Origin: Thermoproteota archaeon
GTDB taxonomy: Archaea > Korarchaeota > Korarchaeia > Korarchaeales > Korarchaeaceae
Assembly (NCBI GenBank): GCA_026986575.1
Contig: JALSOH010000009.1
Coordinates: 96,001 to 160,000 of the forward strand
Direction of reading: 5' to 3'
DNA length: 64,000 bases
The notes below the pieces were generated by a model. The model did no database searches, was not told the origin of the DNA, and was given only the letters and a program-made list of their open reading frames with translations. Shown here one piece after another: positions 31,825 through 42,113 of this stretch. The stretch's first letter is position 1, and every line of letters starts with the position of its first letter. The position numbers and the translations under genes are program-made.

Positions 31825-32826
31825 ATGCTGTGGATAGATGTGGTGAACGAACCTCACGTCAGGCTCTGGAGGAGGTTCCTCCGTAGGTATCCTCAGGAGG
31901 CGCTGGTGACGGTAAGGAGGAAGGGACCTCTGGTGGAACTGACCCGCAGGCTGCTGGGCCGGGACTTTCTGGTGGTAGGAAGGTGGGGTCGCACCAAGGA
32001 GGAAAAGCTCAGGGCTTTCGCCGAGAGGGTCAGGGAACTGGCCGAGTTGGTCGATGAACTGGATGTAAGTGTGGCCACCTCCAAAGGATCGGCGGAGCAG
32101 GCTAGAGTGGCCTTCGGGCTCGGAATTCCGTTCGTGGCCCTCAACGATAACGACCTGTCGCCTCACGTGATCACCAAGCTGACCTTCCCCCTCTCCACCG
32201 TCGCGGTGGTGCCGGAGTGCTTCCGAGGTCCGATCTACGGGCCCACTCTGAGGTTCAAGGGGATCTTCGAGGTATCACACGTCCTCGATTACCTTGAGGA
32301 GCCGACGAGGGAGGAACTCAGGCATCTGGGGCTAAGAGAGAGGGGATACGTTATAGTCAGACCCCCGCCCGTAGGATCCCATTACTTAGAAGTTGCGGAG
32401 CACTTCGAGGATGCGGTGAGCAGGCTACTCCTCTCTACGGGCTTGGATGAGGTCAGGATGCCGAGGGAAGGCGGGATCATCCTGCCCGACGGATCTAGGT
32501 ACGAGGGCGTGGTCGACGGATTGGATCTGATCTCCACCTCCGCCGGAGTCCTCTCCGGTGGGGGGACTATGATAAGGGAGGCGGCGCTCCTCGGCATTCC
32601 CGCGATATCCCTATTCCCTAGGGAGGAGCCGTGCGTCACCGAGGTTCTGATGAGGGAGGGCCTGATAGTTAAGGCCAGGGAGGACACCGTGATCAGGGCC
32701 TACGAGAGGTTGCTGGAGGACATGAGCTCAGGCGAGCTCGAGAGGAGGGCTAAGAGGTTCCTCAAATCGGTCGGCGACCCTCTAGACACAGTTGCTAGGG
32801 CGCTAGAGGAGGCAGAGAGGTCTTGA
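31825..32826 (+). CDS. DUF354-family putative GT-B glycosyltransferase
   Basis: MLWIDVVNEPHV, GSAEQARVAFGLGIP, SGGGTMIREAALLGIPAIS. Confidence 0.85.
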   Translation: MLWIDVVNEPHVRLWRRFLRRYPQEALVTVRRKGPLVELTRRLLGRDFLVVGRWGRTKEEKLRAFAERVRELAELVDELDVSVATSKGSAEQARVAFGLGIPFVALNDNDLSPHVITKLTFPLSTVAVVPECFRGPIYGPTLRFKGIFEVSHVLDYLEEPTREELRHLGLRERGYVIVRPPPVGSHYLEVAEHFEDAVSRLLLSTGLDEVRMPREGGIILPDGSRYEGVVDGLDLISTSAGVLSGGGTMIREAALLGIPAISLFPREEPCVTEVLMREGLIVKAREDTVIRAYERLLEDMSSGELERRAKRFLKSVGDPLDTVARALEEAERS

Positions 32827-33212: not shown

Positions 33213-34688
33213 TCAGAAGGGGCCCGCTCTGTAGCCCAGTCCTTCTTTCTCCAACTCCCCCCACTCGAACCTCTTTCCCTTAGCTCTGGCGATGAAGGTG
33301 TCCAGTAGGGCCTTCACCATCCAGGCCTCGTGCATCTGCTTGTACCCGACGACGAATAAGGGTAGGATCGCCAGGGTTATGTCCTCCTCCCCAGCGATCT
33401 GCAGTGAGAGGAGGAATATGAGGAACTGCATGAAGGAGAAAAGGATGAACTGCATTAGCAGGGGTATGAACCGACCGTGAATCAGGCCTAGAGCTAGGGA
33501 GAAGAGGACCGCCACATCCACCAGCGGGATTACGATGAGCTGCATGATCAACGCAGGAAACACCAGCCTCTGCAGGTATCCGTACCTCAGATTTAATAGA
33601 GCGTCCCTGTGCTTCAGGAGGACCTCGAAAGCCCCCCTGTACCACCTCATCCTCTGCCTGTACAGATCCCTGAGCTTCTTAGGCACTTCCGTAAATGCAA
33701 CGGCCAGGGAGCTGGCTTGCACTATCCTACCCGTCTTCAGCGCCTTTATAGTGATGTCAAAATCCTCGGTCACGACGTCCGTGTCGTACATCCCTGTGGA
33801 GCGAAGGACTTCCCTCCTGAATCCTCCGAATGATCCCGAGATTATCATGACGGCGCCGAACACGTCAAGCGCCCTCCTAGCGAAGTTGAAGCTGAGGATG
33901 TACTCTATGGCCTGAAGCTTCGTGAGGAGGTTCACCCTATTCCTGACCAGTACGTTACCCGAGACTGCGGAGACCTCGGGGTCTTGGAACCTCCTCACCA
34001 GCTCGGTTATGGACCTCCTGCCCACCAGCGTGTCTGCATCCACTACCACTATCACATCTCCCTTTGCGAACCTCATGCCGAAGTTCAGGGCCGAGGCCTT
34101 CCCTCTACCCCCGTGCTCCTTCCTGAGCACCTTGACCTTCTTGCTGACGTACCTCGACGCGATCTCGAATGTCCTGTCTGTTGAGGCATCATCCACCACT
34201 ATCACCTCCTTGGGCTCGTAATCGGTTTCGAGGATGGATTCTATCGTCGCTGCAATGGTCCTCTCCTCGTTTCTGGCCGGAACTATGACGGAGACCAGCG
34301 GCCGGTAGAGGAGAGGCCTTCCGACCTCTTGGAGCTCCCTGTACTTGTGGTAGATGGCGAGGGGAGACATGAGCATGTAGTTCCAGGTTATGAGGGTCAG
34401 TCCGAAGGCTAGCAGGGAGTTCAATAGCCCGGGAAACTTGGCGTATCCCTCGTAGAGGACGACGGCAGCCAATGCAATGGGCACGATCACCATGAGGATG
34501 GAGAGCTCCGTAAGCCCTCTCTTGAAGCTGAGCCCCCTCTTTCCCCTCCTGAAGGCCTCAGCCAAGTAATAGAGAGTGAGGGCCGAAGCTATTAGGAGGG
34601 AAACTATGGTAAGTCTCCCAGGTATCACCAGCGGGATCAGGGCGATACTGATGTAGAGCGTCACAACGGTGAGGTAAATCCTCCACAC
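33213..34688 (-). CDS. Processive GT2 polysaccharide synthase (PgaC/IcaA/cellulose-synthase-like)
   Basis: VIVPARNEE, VVDDAS, GKASALN, DAD, TED and QRMRW (D,D,D,QxxRW); N- and C-terminal TM helices. Confidence 0.9.
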   Translation of the reverse strand: MWRIYLTVVTLYISIALIPLVIPGRLTIVSLLIASALTLYYLAEAFRRGKRGLSFKRGLTELSILMVIVPIALAAVVLYEGYAKFPGLLNSLLAFGLTLITWNYMLMSPLAIYHKYRELQEVGRPLLYRPLVSVIVPARNEERTIAATIESILETDYEPKEVIVVDDASTDRTFEIASRYVSKKVKVLRKEHGGRGKASALNFGMRFAKGDVIVVVDADTLVGRRSITELVRRFQDPEVSAVSGNVLVRNRVNLLTKLQAIEYILSFNFARRALDVFGAVMIISGSFGGFRREVLRSTGMYDTDVVTEDFDITIKALKTGRIVQASSLAVAFTEVPKKLRDLYRQRMRWYRGAFEVLLKHRDALLNLRYGYLQRLVFPALIMQLIVIPLVDVAVLFSLALGLIHGRFIPLLMQFILFSFMQFLIFLLSLQIAGEEDITLAILPLFVVGYKQMHEAWMVKALLDTFIARAKGKRFEWGELEKEGLGYRAGPF

Positions 34689-34700
34689 GCGAACACCCCT

Positions 34701-35726
34701 TCAGGGGGCGCCGTGGTCCTTCTCTAGGAGCTTCTCCCCAGCTACGAGCTCTCTCAGCATCTGGATCAATCTCTCGATCAGATCCTCGCGCCTAGAGGAT
34801 TCAATCAGCGTAATTCCGTACCTACGAGCAACGTCCCTCAACCTCTCATCCAACGAGGACGGAATCGCGAGTATCCAGTACTTGGCGTTGGCGTCGAATG
34901 CCTTCGCGAAGAACCTCAGCAAATCCTCTTCCCTCAGCTGCTTCCCGGGAGGGACGATATCAATAACCGCCACAGGTATCGGCTCGTCTGAGGACCTGAT
35001 CACGAAAGTAAAACTTTGCTCTATGCCCGAGACGCCCTTAACCTTGGCTCCCGGGCCCTCTACAGTTATGCCGAGTTCAAGTAACCTGTCGGCCATCTCA
35101 CTGAGGAAGGACGCCTCCTCCAGAGATCTTACCCTCTCTGGGACGACCCTGTAGCGGTATACCCTCGCGATCCTCAGGTCCTTAATGGAGTTCTCCTTAC
35201 CACAGTCGGCACACACGAACTTGAGCTCAGGCAGGGAGAAGAACTCCCCGCAGTCAGAGCACAGATAGATGTCGGCAGTCCTGAGGTAGTCCACCCCAAT
35301 AGCCCTGAGCTTCTTCCCGCATTTGGGACAGACCATCTCTCCACTGGGGGTCTTGAAGTCCGTCTCCGGTCCAGAATAGCCGCAGGCGAGATGCTCGATG
35401 ACCGTGGTCCTGCTAAAGTTGATCGATCCGCAGTAGGGACAGACGGGTCTGATAGTGAGCCTATGGGAGCCGCATCTCCCGCACACAGCGATATTATCGT
35501 GGAGCTCTGCCCTCAGGATACCTTCCCTTGTCAACTCCCTCAGGACATCCTCCACCCCCTCACAATCCCGAACCCCCATTTCCCCGAGCAAGGGACAGTA
35601 GGTGAAGCCCTCATCGGGATCGAAAACTGGAACTAGCTCTTGGAGGTCCCCCGAGAGTATAAGGTTCATCAGCCTTCTCTTGAGGGCGATCCTCCCCCGG
35701 TCCAATCCATCGTCCTTTACGGCCAT
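34701..35726 (-). CDS. TackOD1-type multi-zinc-ribbon protein with C-terminal restriction-endonuclease-like fold
   Basis: CGRC, CPYC, IEHLACGY, CPKCGKKLRAIGVDY, CSDC, CADC pattern; C-terminal VKGVSGIEQSFTF Mrr-like segment. Confidence 0.8.
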   Translation of the reverse strand: MAVKDDGLDRGRIALKRRLMNLILSGDLQELVPVFDPDEGFTYCPLLGEMGVRDCEGVEDVLRELTREGILRAELHDNIAVCGRCGSHRLTIRPVCPYCGSINFSRTTVIEHLACGYSGPETDFKTPSGEMVCPKCGKKLRAIGVDYLRTADIYLCSDCGEFFSLPELKFVCADCGKENSIKDLRIARVYRYRVVPERVRSLEEASFLSEMADRLLELGITVEGPGAKVKGVSGIEQSFTFVIRSSDEPIPVAVIDIVPPGKQLREEDLLRFFAKAFDANAKYWILAIPSSLDERLRDVARRYGITLIESSRREDLIERLIQMLRELVAGEKLLEKDHGAP

Positions 35727-35837
35727 CTTCGTTTACCGTACCCACGAGTAATATTAAGGATGTCGCGGTTTACCCTGAAAAAGAAGTCGGTATCCGAGCT
35801 TTTCAGGGACAGCCCCCTCGGGGAGGCGCCCTCGCCC

Positions 35838-36671
35838 TTACCGTCTCGGCGTGAGAACCAGCTCACAGTGCTCATCCCCCCTAGCGACGCACCTCTCCTC
35901 ATGAGATTCGTACTCGACCCCCATGATCTCCGACACCGCACCCTCTATTATACCCCTCACCATGCTGCATCCCACATCCTCACTGCTCTCCACGAGATTG
36001 GGATTCTCCTCTAATATTTCCTTGAGAGAAGTGCATTCAATGCATTCGTACTTTCTAACAACTATATCTTCGCCCCTCCTCTCCACCTCGGCAATCCCGT
36101 ACCCTAGGGATTGAAAGAGGGGTAAGGCGACCTTCTTCACCACCTCAAAGGGATCGTCGATCTCCAATTCCTCGGACAGGGATACATGCTTCCTCGAGAG
36201 CCCCCTCCCCATCCTCACGCCCACCTGATAGAGAATGCCAGAGGCAGCCCTCGGGCCTATAGCCTCTATCAGTCCCCTAATCAGCTCCTTCATGGCGGAC
36301 TTCCTCAGCATGACGATTCTCTCGCCGAAGACAGTGGGAGGGAATGAAGTGGTGTCCGCTATCAATCCCCTCGTCACGGGTTCGAAGATCCTCACTTCTC
36401 CGATGCTCTTAACGCCAGAGATCCTCTCCACGAGTTCCTGGGAGTCCACCTCCTTATCCGTGATGTCCACAACGAGGATCATCCTCGGCTCAGCACCCAC
36501 CGAATAGCCGTAGATGTAGTTTATGTTCAGCTCCATATCTTCTATTATCCCGGAGATCTCCCTTAGTAGTCCGGGTCTATCCTCCTTGAACGTGAGCGAG
36601 AGACCCAGGAAATCCCTACCGGGAGAGATGAGGACATTCCTAAACTCCAGAGGCTTGGGATCGTCCATCAT
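35838..36671 (-). CDS. ACT + V4R domain ligand-binding protein
   Basis: ACT: EDRPGLLREISGII...NINYI. V4R: LYQVGVRMG, LGYG, ECIEC, CSMVRGIIEG, EERCVARGDEHCEL. Confidence 0.85.
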   Translation of the reverse strand: MMDDPKPLEFRNVLISPGRDFLGLSLTFKEDRPGLLREISGIIEDMELNINYIYGYSVGAEPRMILVVDITDKEVDSQELVERISGVKSIGEVRIFEPVTRGLIADTTSFPPTVFGERIVMLRKSAMKELIRGLIEAIGPRAASGILYQVGVRMGRGLSRKHVSLSEELEIDDPFEVVKKVALPLFQSLGYGIAEVERRGEDIVVRKYECIECTSLKEILEENPNLVESSEDVGCSMVRGIIEGAVSEIMGVEYESHEERCVARGDEHCELVLTPRR

Positions 36672-36711
36672 CAATTACACCCGAAACATGTTGATGAAGG
36701 GGCTCATCGGT

Positions 36712-37515
36712 CTACGCCCTCTGTACCAACCTAAGCTCGCAATAACCGTCCCCCGCAGCCATGCACTTGACCTCCTCAACCGAAACCTCCTTTCCCAAGA
36801 CGGATGTGAGGACACCAGCCCACATTCCCCTTATCAAGCTGCAGGAAGCCCTATCTGTTATACCGGCGACCTCACACTCTATGTTCCTGTAGAGCCTTAT
36901 CTCGCCGCCTTCTCGGGACAGGTGGAGTTCCGCCTCGCCGTAACCTAGGGTCTTAAAGAGGGGGACGGTCACCAGCTCGAGCACATCCTTCGGATCCTCG
37001 ATGCCGACAGATCTGGCGATCTTCTTGTGGTCCTCCCCAGCCCCCAAACCCATCTCGAACCCAATGTTGTAAAGCAAAGCGTCCGCTGCTTCGGGTCCTA
37101 TCCTCTTCGTGAGTTCATTCTTGGCGCTCCTCAGGAGGACATCCCTCATTATGGCAACCCTGTTGTCACCGACGTAGGCCGGAAAGTTCAGAGTATCTAT
37201 GAGCAGGCCCTCCCTTACTGGGAGGATCAGATCCACGTTTCCCACGCCCTCTATTCTGTTCAGTGCTTCCATTAACTCCTCGAAGTCCAGAGCAGATTCT
37301 GAAGCATCCAGGATGAGGAAGATAGTACCCTTACCGCCCTCGCTGACCTGCAGGTGGAGATAGAGGATGTCACCCCCTCTCTGGGCCACTGCTTGGGCTA
37401 CATCCCTCAGTATACCGACCCTGTTCTCGGTTATGTCCATCGAATAAGCTGCAAGCCTCCTGCCCGGACTGACTGCGTACCTGCCCAAGTTGATGGGCCT
37501 ATTCCTCCCCCTCAC
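36712..37515 (-). CDS. ACT + V4R domain ligand-binding protein (paralogue)
   Basis: ENRVGILRDVA...GDILYL; LYNIGFEMG, LGYG, NIEC, CSLIRG, EVKCMAAGDGYCEL. Start uncertain (ORF open to 37602); a TATA at about 37552-37560 favours GTG 37515. Confidence 0.85.
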   Translation of the reverse strand: MRGRNRPINLGRYAVSPGRRLAAYSMDITENRVGILRDVAQAVAQRGGDILYLHLQVSEGGKGTIFLILDASESALDFEELMEALNRIEGVGNVDLILPVREGLLIDTLNFPAYVGDNRVAIMRDVLLRSAKNELTKRIGPEAADALLYNIGFEMGLGAGEDHKKIARSVGIEDPKDVLELVTVPLFKTLGYGEAELHLSREGGEIRLYRNIECEVAGITDRASCSLIRGMWAGVLTSVLGKEVSVEEVKCMAAGDGYCELRLVQRA

Positions 37516-37714
37516 AACCCTCAGCCCCCGATCGAGCAACCTTTGTATTCGCATATAAAAGATCCGGTATAATATAGAAACAAACTCAACAATTCTCATC
37601 AAACTTTAAAGAATTATGGGATGCACTGAAAATTTAGTCTGTGAGGGAAACTGCATCTCTCGAGAGCTGGGGGAAATCTAATTTACTGGCCGTGTGTCTT
37701 GGAGAGGTGATAGC

Positions 37715-39517
37715 ATGCTGATCAGGAAGGATCACTTGAAGCTGCTCCTCCGACTCGGCGAGGATGGTAAGGAGGCCTTGGAATTCAGGGGAGAGAGGAG
37801 GGTAGATGAACTAGTCTTCTCGAGGAGGATAACTGAGCTGAAGGTTCTGGGACTCGTGGATATATCGGACGGGACCATAAACCTCACATCAGCCGGGAGG
37901 AAGCTGGTTGAGGCCCTGAGGAGAGCTGAGCTGGATGTGGAGTCCCTACCCGACGTCTGGGTCGATACCCCCATTTACAAGATGGTGGAACTGGCGGTTA
38001 GAACAGGTCGTATCCTCCCCAATTGGGAGGGCGCGCTGAGGGAGAGGGGGTTCTGGGAAGACGGGCCTACCGACTTGGCCAAGGAGCTCTTGGAGGTTAG
38101 GGGGCAGTCGAGACCCTCCTTGCTGCTAGCTACCGAACTATCGGACTTCATAGAGGTTATACCGCCGGGCCCGGAGGACTTAGGAGAGCTGATAAGGATA
38201 AGGGACGAGCTGGGCTTCGGAAAGTGGGTCGTGAACGCCCTTCAGGCGATGGATCTCCTCTACATATCCCCGCCTGATGAGTTCGGCGCCGTATACACGC
38301 TGACACCTGCAGGGAGGAAGGCCAGGGAGTCTATATGGCTGATCTCCGTAGTGACAACTCAGATAACCGTCGATCAGCGGACTGCGGAGCAGATAGAGAG
38401 AGGGGAGTCCACAGAGAGGCTGGTGGAGATGGGCCTTGCTGACAGCAGCGGAATAACCGAAGCTGGAAGGGGAATGCTGGCGGCTTACAGGGAAATGGGT
38501 GTAGTTAGGAGGCCCACGACACCGTTCTACTTCACAGTAGAGGAGATCAGGGTCCTCAAGGCTATAGAGGAGGCCGAGAGGAAGAGGGAGATGAACCCGG
38601 AGATACTACCCACTAAGGGGTGGATAGAGGATAAATCGGGCATAGCCGATGTGGGAGAAGCCCTAATCCTCTTGGAGTCGAAGGGACTCGTGGAGAGGAG
38701 GGAGATAGAGATGAAGGACACTTACTGGTTCACTGAACACGGGAGGCAGGCCTACAACCTAGTGAAGGAAAGCAGCGAGGACATCACGAGCGAATCGATG
38801 AAAGCCGTGACCTACCCCCTTGCTGGCGAGGTCCCAATGGCCGAGTGGGTCAGGCAGGCCAAGAGGCACGGTTTCGTGGACAAGGACCTCACCAAGAGGG
38901 GTAGGCTACTGGTTGAGCTGAGCAGCAGGGTGGTGAGGAGGCCCGTGCTCACAGCTTACGACGTAGCCATCCTGATGAAGATCCCCAAGGGGAAGTACGT
39001 GGGTAGGGAGGAACTTGTCAGCGCAGTGGACGAGTATCTAGGGGTGAAGGACGATGAGGAGGCCAGGAGAATAGTCAGGAAGGCTATATCAGAGGCCGAA
39101 TCCAAGGGACTCGTGATTATGCTCCAGAACAGGACCGTCGGCCTGACGCCCATAGGGGAGGTGATGAAGGACGTGGTCGCCTTCGGGAACACCCAGACCA
39201 TGAAGACCATGAAGTTCCCGGTCACCCCCACCGTTTACTGGGTCTTGAGGGTCATCTCGGAGAACATAGATGAGTTAAAGGAGGCATGGAGGAAGGGGAT
39301 CGATGTGGTGAACGTGGAGGCCAAGATCGTGTACAACCACCTGAAGAAGTACACGTCCGTTACCGACGAGGAGATAAAGAAGGCCTTCGTGATCCTCAGG
39401 AGGACGGGCCTCTTGGGAAAGATGGGTCCCACCTCAGCAGGAGAGCTCCTGTTAGAGGTCGGCAGAATGTTCGAAAGGCTCCCAGAGGAGGAGAAATGGG
39501 TAAGGGACATCGGCTAG
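37715..39517 (+). CDS. DUF505-family multi-winged-helix protein
   Basis: MLIRKDHL start, repeated LTxxG wing motifs (LTSAGR, LTPAGR, FTEHGR, LTKRGR, LTPIG), NPEILPT, RRPVLTAYD; GAGGTGA RBS. Confidence 0.75.
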   Translation: MLIRKDHLKLLLRLGEDGKEALEFRGERRVDELVFSRRITELKVLGLVDISDGTINLTSAGRKLVEALRRAELDVESLPDVWVDTPIYKMVELAVRTGRILPNWEGALRERGFWEDGPTDLAKELLEVRGQSRPSLLLATELSDFIEVIPPGPEDLGELIRIRDELGFGKWVVNALQAMDLLYISPPDEFGAVYTLTPAGRKARESIWLISVVTTQITVDQRTAEQIERGESTERLVEMGLADSSGITEAGRGMLAAYREMGVVRRPTTPFYFTVEEIRVLKAIEEAERKREMNPEILPTKGWIEDKSGIADVGEALILLESKGLVERREIEMKDTYWFTEHGRQAYNLVKESSEDITSESMKAVTYPLAGEVPMAEWVRQAKRHGFVDKDLTKRGRLLVELSSRVVRRPVLTAYDVAILMKIPKGKYVGREELVSAVDEYLGVKDDEEARRIVRKAISEAESKGLVIMLQNRTVGLTPIGEVMKDVVAFGNTQTMKTMKFPVTPTVYWVLRVISENIDELKEAWRKGIDVVNVEAKIVYNHLKKYTSVTDEEIKKAFVILRRTGLLGKMGPTSAGELLLEVGRMFERLPEEEKWVRDIG

Positions 39518-39704: not shown

Positions 39705-40121
39705 GTGTCGAAGGTAGCGAACAGAATCGAGGAGATCGAGGAAGCACTGAGAGAGCTTGAAGAGCTCACCTCAATGGATCAAAGATCGTTCTTGAAGAGT
39801 AGGACGGCTAGGTTCTCGGCTAGATACTCCATAGTCCAAATTGTGGAGGCATCAGCTGACTTGGGCGTTCTCATACTGCAGATCGAGGGTGAAAGCGCTA
39901 GAAGCTATAGAGAGATCTTCAAGAAACTTGCTCTGCGTGGGATAATTTCAGTGAGTACTTTCGAGGTGATGGCCAGACTGGCATCCCTCAGGAACATGGT
40001 AGTTCACAGGTACTGGGAGGTGGACGATCTCAGGATATATAGGGAGGCTAGGTCAGGCGGATTGGAGGCTATTAGATCGTTTATAAGGGAGGTGAAGGCC
40101 TATCTATCTGAGAAGGGCTGA
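39705..40121 (+). CDS. HEPN (DUF86/HepT-like) ribonuclease toxin
   Basis: SYREIF...LRNMVVHRYWEVDD (Rx4HxY). Confidence 0.9.
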   Translation: MSKVANRIEEIEEALRELEELTSMDQRSFLKSRTARFSARYSIVQIVEASADLGVLILQIEGESARSYREIFKKLALRGIISVSTFEVMARLASLRNMVVHRYWEVDDLRIYREARSGGLEAIRSFIREVKAYLSEKG

Positions 40122-40551
40122 GGAAAGGAGGAAGTTCGAGTTCCACAGGCTGAGCGATGAGGAGAAGGCATCCATAGTTGAAAAGCTCAGAAAGGCGATT
40201 CTGAGTAGGAAGGAGGTCCTGCTTGCGGTAATTCACGGGGGATTCTTGGAGCTCAGACCTTTCAGGGACATAGATGTCGCCATATACACCGGATACTCAA
40301 TTCCCTATGAGGAGGAGCTGGATTTTTGCGAGCAGCTGAGTCTCGAGCTGACCGATATTGCTGGGATCTACGTTGATGTGAGGATGCTGGATTACTCCCC
40401 GCCGCGTTTCAGGGTCAGCGCCCTCTCCAACTGCGTGGTGCTGGTGGAGAGGTACCCGAGGGCATTCCTCCTCAGGGCATCCATCCAGGAGTTGGATGAC
40501 ATCGAGAAGAAGGTTTCCTTGGTGAGGGGATGGATCAGAGGTCGAGGTTAG
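40108..40551 (+). CDS. Minimal nucleotidyltransferase (MNT) antitoxin
   Basis: Frame open from 40096: ...EVLLAVIHGGFLELRPFRDIDVAIY...VDVRML. No ATG/GTG/TTG before the motif, so CTG 40108 is the likely start. Confidence 0.75.
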   Translation: MRRAEERRKFEFHRLSDEEKASIVEKLRKAILSRKEVLLAVIHGGFLELRPFRDIDVAIYTGYSIPYEEELDFCEQLSLELTDIAGIYVDVRMLDYSPPRFRVSALSNCVVLVERYPRAFLLRASIQELDDIEKKVSLVRGWIRGRG

Positions 40552-40593
40552 TCGTTATCCGATCTTGGGTCGCCCTAACGGGCGTGCTGCCCT

Positions 40594-41004
40594 CTATCGA
40601 GTAGGAACCACCTCCACACCGAGCTTCCTCGCCCTAGATCCCATTCTCTTATCGAAGGTGGCGAGCAAGATTCCCTCCTCCCCTGCTATCCTGACGATGA
40701 CCTCGTCATTGAATCGGTTGAGTGAGATACCCTCCTCGGCTAGGGATCCTAGGGCTTTCCTTATGAGGCGCTCTTCTTCCTTGTAGGTCCTGCTCTTCTC
40801 AGACGAGATGTAGTCCTCCAGTTTATCCAGCGCCGTCGATGGACTGACTCCCATCCCCTTGAGGAACCAGATGTATTCATAAATGACTATCAGGGGAATA
40901 ACCCACTCCTCCAATTGATCTAGTAGTTGGGAAGCATCTCTATGGTGTATTGAATCCTCATACGTATCGTAGATCAGGACGTTGGTATCGATCACGGCCC
41001 TCAA
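40594..41004 (-). CDS. vapC: PIN-domain toxin VapC
   Basis: AVIDTNVLIY...IYEY...FNDEVI...LATFDK. Confidence 0.9.
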   Translation of the reverse strand: MRAVIDTNVLIYDTYEDSIHHRDASQLLDQLEEWVIPLIVIYEYIWFLKGMGVSPSTALDKLEDYISSEKSRTYKEEERLIRKALGSLAEEGISLNRFNDEVIVRIAGEEGILLATFDKRMGSRARKLGVEVVPTR

Positions 41005-41231
41005 AAGGTTTCCCTCCTTCCCCTCTCTATCACCTCATCGATCTCCTCGATGGTAAGCTTCCTCCCCGATCTAAGGGTCTTTCTGACTCTCTTAACCTTC
41101 TTCATTACTATATGACCTTCCTCACTTACGTAAACTTCCAAGTAATCGCCTTCCCTTATGCCCAGCTCGTTCCTCACCTCGGCTGGAATGGTGACCTGGT
41201 AGTTCCTAGTGACCTTCACCCTCGGCATCAT
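41001..41231 (-). CDS. vapB: AbrB/MazE-family antitoxin
   Basis: VKVTRNYQVTIPAEVRNELGIREGD. Confidence 0.9.
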   Translation of the reverse strand: MMPRVKVTRNYQVTIPAEVRNELGIREGDYLEVYVSEEGHIVMKKVKRVRKTLRSGRKLTIEEIDEVIERGRRETF

Positions 41232-41368
41232 AGTATCATATTCTACTAATATAAAAGGACATCTAGTAATTAGCGATCGACCGCGCGACGTTTTCCCCGT
41301 TCTGAATCGGGTATGTTCCGACTTGGCTTGGTCGCGCATCCTCTTTAAGGACGTGGTGCCTGACTTCG

Positions 41369-41737
41369 ATGATGGAACTGGAACTAGTGCTGGAGAGACT
41401 AAAGTCCCATGAGAAGGTACTGGCAGTCATACTCTTCGGTTCCACCGTCAGGGGAGAGACCACACCCCTCTCGGATGTTGATATTGCCGTGGTCGTGGAG
41501 GATCCAACCCCGGAGGACGAGGCGGAGCTGGGAAGCCTATACTCTAGGAGGATAGACTTGGTTCTGTTTCACAGGCTCCCCCCTTACATCCAGTTCCAAG
41601 TATTGAAGGAGGGGAAGGTCCTCTACCTGAGAGACAAGGAGAAGTTCAAAGAGATAAAATTCAGGACCATCAGGAACTACCTCGAGCATTCCCGCATGTA
41701 CAGAAGGGTGAGGGAGATGCTCCTTGAGGTCGAATAG
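41369..41737 (+). CDS. Minimal nucleotidyltransferase (MntA-like) antitoxin
   Basis: ILFGSTVRGETTPLSDVDIAV...IDLV...EGKVLY. Confidence 0.9.
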   Translation: MMELELVLERLKSHEKVLAVILFGSTVRGETTPLSDVDIAVVVEDPTPEDEAELGSLYSRRIDLVLFHRLPPYIQFQVLKEGKVLYLRDKEKFKEIKFRTIRNYLEHSRMYRRVREMLLEVE

Positions 41738-42113
41738 CTTGGCTAGATTCATGAGTCACTACAGAAAGGCGAGAGAGTTAAAGGAGAGCGATCTCTCAAA
41801 TTACTTGGTCTACACGGCCCTAGCCATGGAGTGCTTCCAGGCAGTGAACTCCCTCATAGAGATTGGCGAGAGATACGTGGTGGATCTGGGCAGGTACCCC
41901 GCTACCTACTCCGACATATTCCAGATAATGTACGAAGAGGGAGCGATAACTATGGAGGAGCTGAGGGCTCTCAAGAGGCTGATCTTCCTCAGGAACTTGA
42001 TAGCTCACGAGTATTACAGAATAACTGGGGAAGAGCTGAAAGAGATGGCCGACCTGCTGGATATGGCTGAAAGGGTCGTGAGGAGATTAATGAAACATTC
42101 GCATCCTAGTTGA
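41724..42113 (+). CDS. HEPN (DUF86/HepT-like) toxin
   Basis: PATYSDIF...LRNLIAHEY. Confidence 0.9.
   Translation: MRSNSLARFMSHYRKARELKESDLSNYLVYTALAMECFQAVNSLIEIGERYVVDLGRYPATYSDIFQIMYEEGAITMEELRALKRLIFLRNLIAHEYYRITGEELKEMADLLDMAERVVRRLMKHSHPS

Follow-up and report, generated by a model that had tools for sequence, protein, structure and literature searches.

TackOD1 zinc-ribbon proteins as candidate control subunits of membrane polysaccharide synthases in archaea and bacteria

A 64,000-nucleotide (nt) stretch of the genome of a Thermoproteota archaeon of the family Korarchaeaceae (assembly GCA_026986575.1, contig JALSOH010000009.1, positions 96,001 to 160,000; hereafter the window) carries four co-oriented genes on its minus strand. 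From upstream to downstream, their open reading frames span 36712-37602, 35838-36674, 34701-35726 and 33213-34688 and encode 296 (from a TTG), 278, 341 and 491 amino acids (aa). The gaps between them are 37, 111 and 12 nt, in line with the 40, 111 and 12 nt estimated in an initial annotation of this DNA. The first two genes encode ACT-V4R sensor proteins, the third encodes a protein of the TackOD1 family, and the fourth encodes a membrane-embedded family 2 glycosyltransferase (GT2) with the QxxRW motif of polysaccharide synthases. That the TackOD1 protein, which has no receiver domain, belongs functionally with the synthase is strongly supported by a gene neighbourhood conserved across two domains of life. 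The core unit is a pair of genes, one for the cytoplasmic TackOD1 protein and one, directly downstream, for the synthase-type GT2. Because this pairing recurs in many archaea and bacteria, the TackOD1 protein is probably the synthase's dedicated control subunit, and the system would be one of synthase-dependent polysaccharide production under a control subunit of a new type.

TackOD1 has been known from other contexts. Stand-alone TackOD1 proteins are listed beside REC-TackOD1 proteins, as arCOG06883 of the Thaumarchaeota, in the main texts of Galperin 2018 (PMC5847659) and Makarova 2016 (PMC4858521). The former calls the function of TackOD1 obscure (PMC5847659), and the latter places arCOG06883 in type IV pilus loci (PMC4858521). 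These proteins share the Pfam family and the cysteine pattern of the window protein. Supplements aside, the same accounts describe no GT2 partner, no nuclease-fold C-terminal domain and no link to V4R (PMC5847659, PMC4858521). In the literature searched, these two papers are the only ones in which the family is named. Our search found none in which TackOD1 is tied to either a GT2 or a degenerate GGDEF domain, although supplements may list such neighbourhoods, and none that by title or abstract ties V4R to an archaeal glycosyltransferase.

TackOD1-GT2 pairs in archaea and bacteria

The linkage of TackOD1 to GT2 that the initial annotation had supposed recurs in the window's genus, in a second archaeal phylum and in bacteria. 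The window's own phylum is small (43 species genomes), and within its genus TackOD1 is strongly matched in 12 genomes. A GT2 (55-95% identity) lies directly downstream of TackOD1 in 11 of the 12; the twelfth has its TackOD1 gene cut off by the contig end. Seven same-genus genomes have the layout TackOD1-TackOD1-GT2. Only about two genes of the window genome match the window GT2 at E<1e-15, so that adjacency by chance would be expected in less than ~1% of cases.

TackOD1 is also widespread in the second archaeal phylum, where it was found in 170 of 301 genomes. The best-listed place per genus was surveyed for 65 of the 69 matching genera, taking 12 kb around each locus; these were drawn from 150 listed places, with 95 further matches lying outside that list. 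At 15 of the 65 loci, a GT2 homologue (E<1e-15) was found within 3.5 kb of TackOD1. Eleven of these homologues are directly adjacent, eight of them co-directional (gaps of -20 to +46 nt) and three convergent. In two further loci a single gene separates TackOD1 from GT2, encoding a CE4 deacetylase in one (L075) and an ACT-V4R protein in the other (L091), and in the remaining two the GT2 is farther off (1.9 and 3.4 kb). Homologues of T2SSF and T2SSE mark type IV pilus genes at 30 of the 65 loci, and 21 loci have neither GT2 nor pilus genes. In a rapid maximum-likelihood phylogeny covering 82 TackOD1 proteins (rows below 280 aa and a 527-aa Pirellulales protein left out), the GT2-linked members cluster: 12 label changes were needed against a mean of 23.6 after shuffling, and none of 500 shuffles reached so low a number. 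The window protein falls in a clade of eight, all GT2-linked (SH-aLRT support 95).

In another genus of the window's family, a minus-strand run (L044:906-6441) comprises TackOD1, an ORF of 286 aa with no assigned function, ACT-V4R, GT2 and TackOD1, so that the synthase gene is flanked on both sides by TackOD1 paralogues. In three loci of another archaeal phylum, a gene for a Ras-family small GTPase lies directly upstream of TackOD1 on the same strand (L073:6168-6764, minus strand, Pfam Ras E 8e-40; L083:3887-4522; L085:5168-5968); two of these loci are GT2-linked.

Bacterial homologues extend the pairing to a second domain of life. Two loci from bacterial metagenome-assembled genomes were found with the window protein as query. 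In a Pirellulales genome (L037), the gene for a REC-PilZ-TackOD1 protein overlaps a GT2 gene, and in Colwellia (L036) the order is HlyD-like, TackOD1, GT2 and REC-GGDEF-EAL. A related-locus search with the Colwellia protein found only itself. Across the class to which the Colwellia genome belongs, TackOD1 was found in 18 of 400 genomes, a tally that includes genome G494 and in which genome G601 was unscored. We examined 16 bacterial loci, leaving out G494 and the Colwellia genome, and 14 of them have a GT2 immediately downstream on the same strand (13 intact, one split). In 12 of the 13 intact pairs, the stop of TackOD1 and the start of GT2 overlap or lie less than ~10 nt apart. The two remaining loci, with weak or partial TackOD1 matches, have no GT2.

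The bacterial TackOD1 proteins consist of an N-terminal extension, the TackOD1 module and a GGDEF domain (Pfam match in four of ten scanned, 25-47 bits). They have no nuclease-fold domain; the GGDEF domain stands in its place. The GGDEF motif itself is degenerate, and the arginine of an RxxD motif is invariant (15/15) and its aspartate kept in at least 90%. Judged by these residues, the domain bears the signature of I-site receptors of cyclic di-GMP (c-di-GMP) such as PssE. An HlyD-like protein is encoded at 13 bacterial loci and an OEP outer-membrane protein at five, which marks a secretion system. By analogy, the gene set would make up an exopolysaccharide (EPS) secretion system that depends on a synthase and carries a c-di-GMP receptor of the I-site type. 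The comparison with c-di-GMP-gated synthases made in the initial annotation is thereby strengthened, since bacterial TackOD1 proteins encoded before the same kind of GT2 carry either PilZ or a degenerate GGDEF with RxxD. As a conserved set in its own right (L141-L154, for example L141:5644-11620), the bacterial loci combine a TackOD1-degenerate GGDEF protein and GT2, often with OEP and an HlyD-like membrane-fusion protein; our literature search found no paper on it.

Domains and folds of the paired proteins

The TackOD1 protein (34701-35726, minus strand, 341 aa) has three parts: an acidic winged-helix-like N-terminal part, a three-zinc ribbon array and a nuclease-fold C-terminal domain. The ribbon array (residues 15-194, 35145-35684, minus strand) matches Pfam PF18551 with an E-value of 1.3e-42 (146 bits against a cut-off of 32), covering positions 9-188 of the 188-position profile. 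Five CxxC motifs (CGRC 82-85, CPYC 96-99, CPKC 133-136, CSDC 156-159 and CADC 172-175) and one HxxC (HLAC 112-115) are present. The multi-zinc-ribbon protein recognized in the initial annotation from its cysteines thus has both the family profile and all six motifs; the pattern of eleven conserved cysteines, in five CxxC and one HxxC, is defined in the main text of Galperin 2018 (PMC5847659). The family is large (3072 clusters at 50% identity), and a search of the ESM Atlas returned only clusters named TackOD1 or Mrr.

An AlphaFold2 model of the protein, built from an 18-row alignment, reached a mean predicted local distance difference test score (pLDDT) of 87.9. In comparisons with this model, the C-terminal domain (residues 196-335, 34722-35141, minus strand) has the alpha-beta-beta-beta-alpha-beta core of the PD-(D/E)xK fold. 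The closest structural matches have Z-scores of 9.4-10.5, among them AF1548 (Z 10.5, root-mean-square deviation 3.8, 115 residues aligned), Can2 (9.9) and Bax1 (9.6), and Foldseek added Cdn1, EndoMS and 1y88 (E 3e-4). The Pfam family Mrr_cat did not match the window protein at E<=0.1; among 40 long members of the family, 16 do score it. When 175 family members are aligned on the model, the consensus for this domain is GxSGxxHxFD ... D ... AKxxD. The window protein has Q237 where 139 of the 175 have histidine, T240 where 95 have aspartate, and D256-I-V258 at the ExK site; family-wide, the lysine position of this site is taken by V, A, L or I. Conservation of K275 and D278 would allow a relocated lysine for the family; the window protein also lacks the histidine at 237 and the aspartate at 240. 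An active nuclease was considered for the window protein and is ruled out by these motifs. The nuclease-like fold without catalytic residues described in the initial annotation agrees with both the model matches and the missing D...(D/E)xK.

Pfam found no REC domain in the TackOD1 protein, and neither PilZ nor GGDEF with RxxD, which are present only in the bacterial relatives. Across the whole genome, which is 99.7% complete, no REC match was obtained at E<=0.001, and 12 of 14 control genomes were matched in the same way. The protein therefore lacks a receiver, as first annotated, and the organism appears to have no two-component signalling. HATPase_c had a single match in the genome, a 540-aa frame on contig C4. 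The same contig, outside the window, holds a weak second TackOD1-like match (G000:C4:531458-531760, E 8e-7, below cut-off) in a frame of 223 aa. At least six same-genus genomes have comparable frames (219-231 aa), and the 223-aa frame is probably a shorter double zinc-ribbon protein.

The GT2 (33213-34688, minus strand, 491 aa) matches Pfam Glycos_transf_2 with an E-value of 1e-38. It has DDAS at residues 166-169, DAD at 217-219, TED at 307-309 and QRMRW at 345-349 (33642-33656), so that the full D,D,D,QxxRW set noted earlier is present. D167, D217, D309, Q345, R346, R348 and W349 are invariant in 21 TackOD1-linked GT2s. The best NCBIfam match is PgaC_IcaA (TIGR03937, an equivalog family), with 198 bits against a cut-off of 422, which makes the protein a relative of PgaC/IcaA and not a member. 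In its AlphaFold2 model (pLDDT 86.3, predicted template modelling score 0.86), about four N-terminal and three C-terminal long membrane helices (within residues 2-121 and 371-469) surround a GT-A domain. Foldseek aligned the model with hyaluronan synthases and BcsA over nearly its full length (436-519 columns, template modelling (TM) score 0.5-0.65).

From these features we infer that the GT2 makes and exports a surface polysaccharide. Its product is probably based on N-acetylglucosamine (GlcNAc), because PgaC/IcaA is the nearest family and a CE4 deacetylase occurs in one archaeal locus. There, the gene for the CE4 polysaccharide deacetylase (L075:4175-5209, minus strand; Polysacc_deac_1, E 2e-11) lies between TackOD1 and GT2, a hint that this lineage makes a GlcNAc polymer with some of its acetyl groups removed.

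The ACT-V4R pair and its surroundings

Both upstream genes encode an ACT domain followed by a V4R sensor part. Protein A matches ACT with an E-value of 8e-7 (29.1 bits, cut-off 27), V4R with 9e-14 (51.8 bits, cut-off 31) and XylR_N with 2e-4; in the 296-aa numbering, ACT spans about residues 59-118 and the XylR_N and V4R sensor part about 132-293. Protein B (35838-36674, minus strand, 278 aa) matches ACT with 5e-7 (29.9 bits), V4R with 2e-9 (37.9 bits) and XylR_N with 5e-5. The two are 31% identical across 272 residues (E 8e-50), in agreement with their first description as paralogues, and a check by hidden Markov models (Pfam) upheld every domain call made for the locus: TackOD1, V4R, ACT and GT2. 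A comparison with the PDB matched residues 116-274 of protein A (280-aa numbering) to the phenol sensors of MopR and PoxR (E 2e-4). The window proteins share the XylR_N and V4R sensor part and its cysteines with the sensor domains of MopR, PoxR and DmpR and with archaeal MsvR. They differ in having no AAA+ or DNA-binding output domain, with an ACT domain in front instead, so that any output must pass through another protein.

For the first gene, the most likely start is ATG 37554 (36712-37554, minus strand, 280 aa) rather than TTG 37602, to which its frame is open, because this ATG and a TATA-like TATATTATA box ~20 nt upstream of it are both conserved in a relative (L035). In the same relative, which is 88% identical, the block TCTATATTATACCGGATCTTTTATATGCGAATACAA is unchanged and the flanking sequence is variable. 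By sequence and conservation, the divergent intergenic region 37555-37693 (minus strand) likely holds the promoter of the ACT-V4R pair. The 111-nt spacer between gene B and TackOD1 (35727-35837, minus strand) holds a T5 run followed by a conserved TATA-like CCTTAATAT box ~25-30 nt before the TackOD1 start. In an alignment of four relatives its 3' half is nearly invariant and its 5' half variable. A conserved T-run and TATA-like box at this place suggest two transcription units; the spacer is probably a terminator plus a separate promoter of the TackOD1-GT2 unit, with the ACT-V4R pair transcribed apart. A scan for sigma-70 promoters and intrinsic terminators returned four promoter-like sites against 2.6 expected and five terminator-like sites against 4.3, and tells little about an archaeon.

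How firmly the pair belongs to the locus depends on the lineage. In the whole window genome, V4R exceeds the cut-off in only two genes, TackOD1 is present in full in one, and a synthase-type GT2 of full length is encoded once. All of these genes are here, so that their grouping is not a matter of chance. The window shares the layout V4R-V4R-TackOD1-GT2 with three close relatives, the four genomes together making up its subclade. Elsewhere, five of the 65 surveyed loci of the second phylum have a V4R or ACT-V4R gene no more than three genes from TackOD1, split as four of the 15 GT2-linked loci, none of the 29 pilus-only loci and one of the 21 others. Such genes also lie near TackOD1 in two loci of the window's own phylum (L044 and L163). 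Seven same-genus genomes (G004, G006, G012, G014, G015, G016 and G017) have their V4R genes, of 268-290 aa, unlinked from TackOD1, on other contigs or more than 180 kb away. In the three genomes that were examined (G012, G015 and G016), they are tandem ACT-V4R genes; in G012 they lie at 259 kb and TackOD1 at 571 kb, and in G015 at 161-164 kb and 350 kb. The window V4R proteins are only 35-38% identical to such unlinked pairs, and the G012 pair adjoins a Lon-like protease and saccharopine dehydrogenase. Two of the unlinked sites (L160:7508-9162, two genes, in G012; L161:7587-10805, three genes, in G015) adjoin this protease and dehydrogenase, and a shorter GT2, different from that of the window, is ~3 kb away.

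The ACT-V4R genes are genuinely linked to the module, but only facultatively. The initial annotation had proposed a ligand-gated module running from V4R through TackOD1 to GT2; its TackOD1-GT2 core is conserved, and the ACT-V4R pair is not fixed in it. As an invariant part of the module, the pair is excluded by the seven same-genus genomes with V4R genes elsewhere.

Other genes adjoin the locus. On the plus strand beyond the synthase, 31825-32826 encodes a DUF354 protein (Pfam E 7e-36), GT-B/epimerase-like, whose homologues (51-93% identity) are neighbours of the GT2 in same-genus relatives, at ~0.4-4.2 kb (L032, L035, L039, L040, L041 and L050). Divergent from the first ACT-V4R gene, 37694-39517 (plus strand) encodes a 607-aa DUF505 protein (Pfam E 1e-108), found in the same position in L035 with 92% identity. 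Further on, a cluster of small genes resembling toxin-antitoxin systems occupies 39705-42113. It holds a HepT-like RNase (39705-40121, Pfam E 1e-20) and ORFs judged by eye as nucleotidyltransferase-like and PIN-like or AbrB-like (40246-40551; 40594-41004 and 41001-41339, both minus strand; 41369-41737; 41724-42113).

Modes of control and their implications

We favour, at somewhat less than an even chance, a TackOD1 protein that controls the synthase at the protein level, working like PilZ, PelD or PssE. Contact would be made by the constant zinc-ribbon module of TackOD1, which would dock on the synthase or gate it; in other lineages its target would be the type IV pilus machine. A variable neighbouring domain or partner would supply the signal. 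In bacteria this would be REC, PilZ or a degenerate GGDEF with an I-site; in archaea, REC or a domain of nuclease fold. In the window organism, which has no receivers, the signal may come from a heterodimer of the two ACT-V4R proteins, an optional input that would respond to a small ligand or to redox state. The domains, motifs, folds and gene linkage are shown; that the proteins touch, which way control runs, and what the ligand and the polymer are is inferred. Prediction of a complex between GT2 and TackOD1 gave scores of 0.13 and 0.11 against a mark of 0.32 and, run without controls, weighs neither way.

Known systems provide precedents for such control. PilZ and I-site domains of BcsA, Alg44, PelD and PssE act post-translationally on EPS synthases when they are encoded in the same operon. 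BcsA and PgaC are QxxRW synthases gated allosterically by a cytoplasmic signal-binding element. Among these precedents, PssE of Listeria monocytogenes, together with PssC, binds c-di-GMP and is required for GT2-dependent EPS, according to the part of the report that describes it (PMC4125290). PelD of Pseudomonas is described in comparable terms, as an operon-encoded degenerate-GGDEF I-site receptor needed for EPS synthesis (PMC2170427). As proposed for TackOD1, PssE and PelD are enzymatically inactive signalling proteins encoded in the same cluster as a synthase-type glycosyltransferase, which they are needed to switch on, and they have the same kind of degenerate GGDEF with RxxD as the bacterial TackOD1 proteins. 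PssE differs in consisting, as described in that report, of an N-terminal part and GGDEF with no TackOD1 zinc-ribbon module (PMC4125290). The window protein, for its part, has a nuclease-fold domain and neither GGDEF nor PilZ, in an organism without receivers. The GT2 fold and motifs are shared with the BcsA-PilZ and PgaC-PgaD systems, and one bacterial TackOD1 protein is itself fused to PilZ. In BcsA, however, PilZ lies within the synthase chain and PgaD is a small membrane protein, whereas the partner here is a separate soluble zinc protein of 341 aa; the window GT2 also falls below the PgaC_IcaA cut-off, and the window has no c-di-GMP element. An archaeal counterpart is MTH_548 of the Methanobacteriaceae, given in the main text of Galperin 2018 as a fusion of REC with GT2 (PMC5847659). 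It likewise places an archaeal BcsA-like GT2 directly under a signalling domain, as a receiver fusion where the window has a separate protein without a receiver.

Several observations weigh against control of the synthase by TackOD1 through protein contact. No such GT2 is near TackOD1 at 50 of the 65 surveyed loci, and co-transcription of the two genes is precluded at four GT2-linked loci (of 15) by their convergent orientation. The family has switched between GT2 and pilus neighbours several times, the starred branches of the tree forcing at least five changes, as would be seen for regulators that are retargeted. Longer forms of 722-2060 aa with TackOD1 fused in were not found at E<=1e-5, which is weak evidence, and Pfam found no GT2 fused to TackOD1 among the 40 long members (nor ACT or V4R). 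HTH_45, TrmB and HHH_5 domains, in contrast, are fused to one long member each, and the architecture with a PD-(D/E)xK C-terminal domain resembles that of Mrr-type enzymes. For the sensor arm, the unlinked V4R genes of the seven same-genus genomes, the unrelated neighbours of the G012 pair and a spacer resembling a terminator plus promoter all count on the same side.

The Mrr-like architecture, the extra domains and the neighbour switching would be expected if the TackOD1 protein were a DNA-binding transcription regulator of the adjacent synthase promoter, or of pilus operons elsewhere. We judge this unlikely but a serious rival. Its winged helix and zinc ribbons, and a non-cutting nuclease fold kept for the purpose, would recognize DNA, and the ACT-V4R proteins, or REC, PilZ or GGDEF-like domains elsewhere, would modulate binding. 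The four convergent loci fit such a regulator, and V4R is the sensor part of the activators MopR and PoxR (the PDB match above) and of MsvR (a partial NCBIfam match). Against it, the window protein has no canonical DNA-binding family in Pfam. Its winged-helix-like and nuclease-fold parts have net charges of -6 and -5, and in 23 GT2-linked proteins the median isoelectric point is 5.3 for both parts, most members being net acidic; this acidity counts weakly against DNA binding. The bacterial forms dispense with the nuclease-fold domain altogether, carry a PilZ or I-site type domain and are encoded directly before their GT2. Protein-level control is preferred because of the overlapping or near-abutting bacterial pairs, the company of PilZ and I-site domains, the archaeal REC-GT2 fusion and the acidic parts.

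A different division of the locus is quite conceivable, although we lean against it: the TackOD1-GT2 system and the ACT-V4R pair would be two independent units, brought side by side by a rearrangement in the subclade that removed a second TackOD1 paralogue. The V4R genes that lie elsewhere in the seven same-genus genomes with TackOD1-TackOD1(-GT2), the low identity of the window V4R proteins to those pairs, the neighbours of the G012 pair and the conserved T-run and TATA-like box of the spacer all agree with such a history. Against it, the four-gene arrangement is kept throughout the window's subclade, and V4R or ACT-V4R genes lie beside TackOD1, mostly with GT2, in at least seven further loci from different genera and two phyla (L044, L065, L073, L074, L075, L091 and L163), with none in the pilus-only loci. 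Five of 65 is several times the chance expectation given the few V4R genes per genome, a rough estimate from related genomes. It is improbable, finally, that the GT2 resembles the crenarchaeal mannosyltransferase PcManGT in being a membrane enzyme that builds lipid-linked or protein glycans, with TackOD1 as an assembly or stability factor. PcManGT has a minimal cellulose-synthase-like fold; its structure (6yv7) is the best sequence match to the GT2 among solved structures (E 2e-21) and a top fold match (TM score 0.75, normalised to the target), and the score below the PgaC_IcaA cut-off would agree with such an enzyme. The PcManGT match covers only the 345-residue core, whereas the hyaluronan synthase and BcsA alignments extend over nearly the full length with its roughly seven membrane helices. 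The invariance of QRMRW, TED and the other motifs, the HlyD-like and OEP export proteins beside the bacterial homologues and the CE4 deacetylase of one archaeal locus also point away from it.

If protein-level control is taken further, TackOD1 might be a universal docking or gating module for membrane polymer-export machines of archaea and bacteria, both synthase-type GT2s and type IV pilus motors, with interchangeable inputs. We regard this extension as speculative and somewhat unlikely in its full form. Its inputs would be REC, PilZ and I-site GGDEF in bacteria, and REC, small GTPases and nuclease-fold domains with ACT-V4R in archaea.

To our knowledge, little has been established about how archaea switch the making of exopolysaccharide and biofilms, and we know of no archaeal counterpart of the c-di-GMP circuitry by which bacterial synthases are gated. 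Being paired almost obligatorily with a QxxRW synthase gives the large orphan TackOD1 family a specific, testable role. The pairing is found in a small Korarchaeum-like phylum, in a second archaeal phylum and in bacteria, where the slot is filled by PilZ or I-site GGDEF; one shared module may thus link the control of surface polymers in the two domains, and the bacterial homologues offer genetically tractable test beds. If TackOD1 is such a universal module, it would be the archaeal counterpart of PilZ, serving as a one-step, ligand-gated switch for surface polysaccharide in organisms that, like this one, have neither two-component systems nor c-di-GMP.

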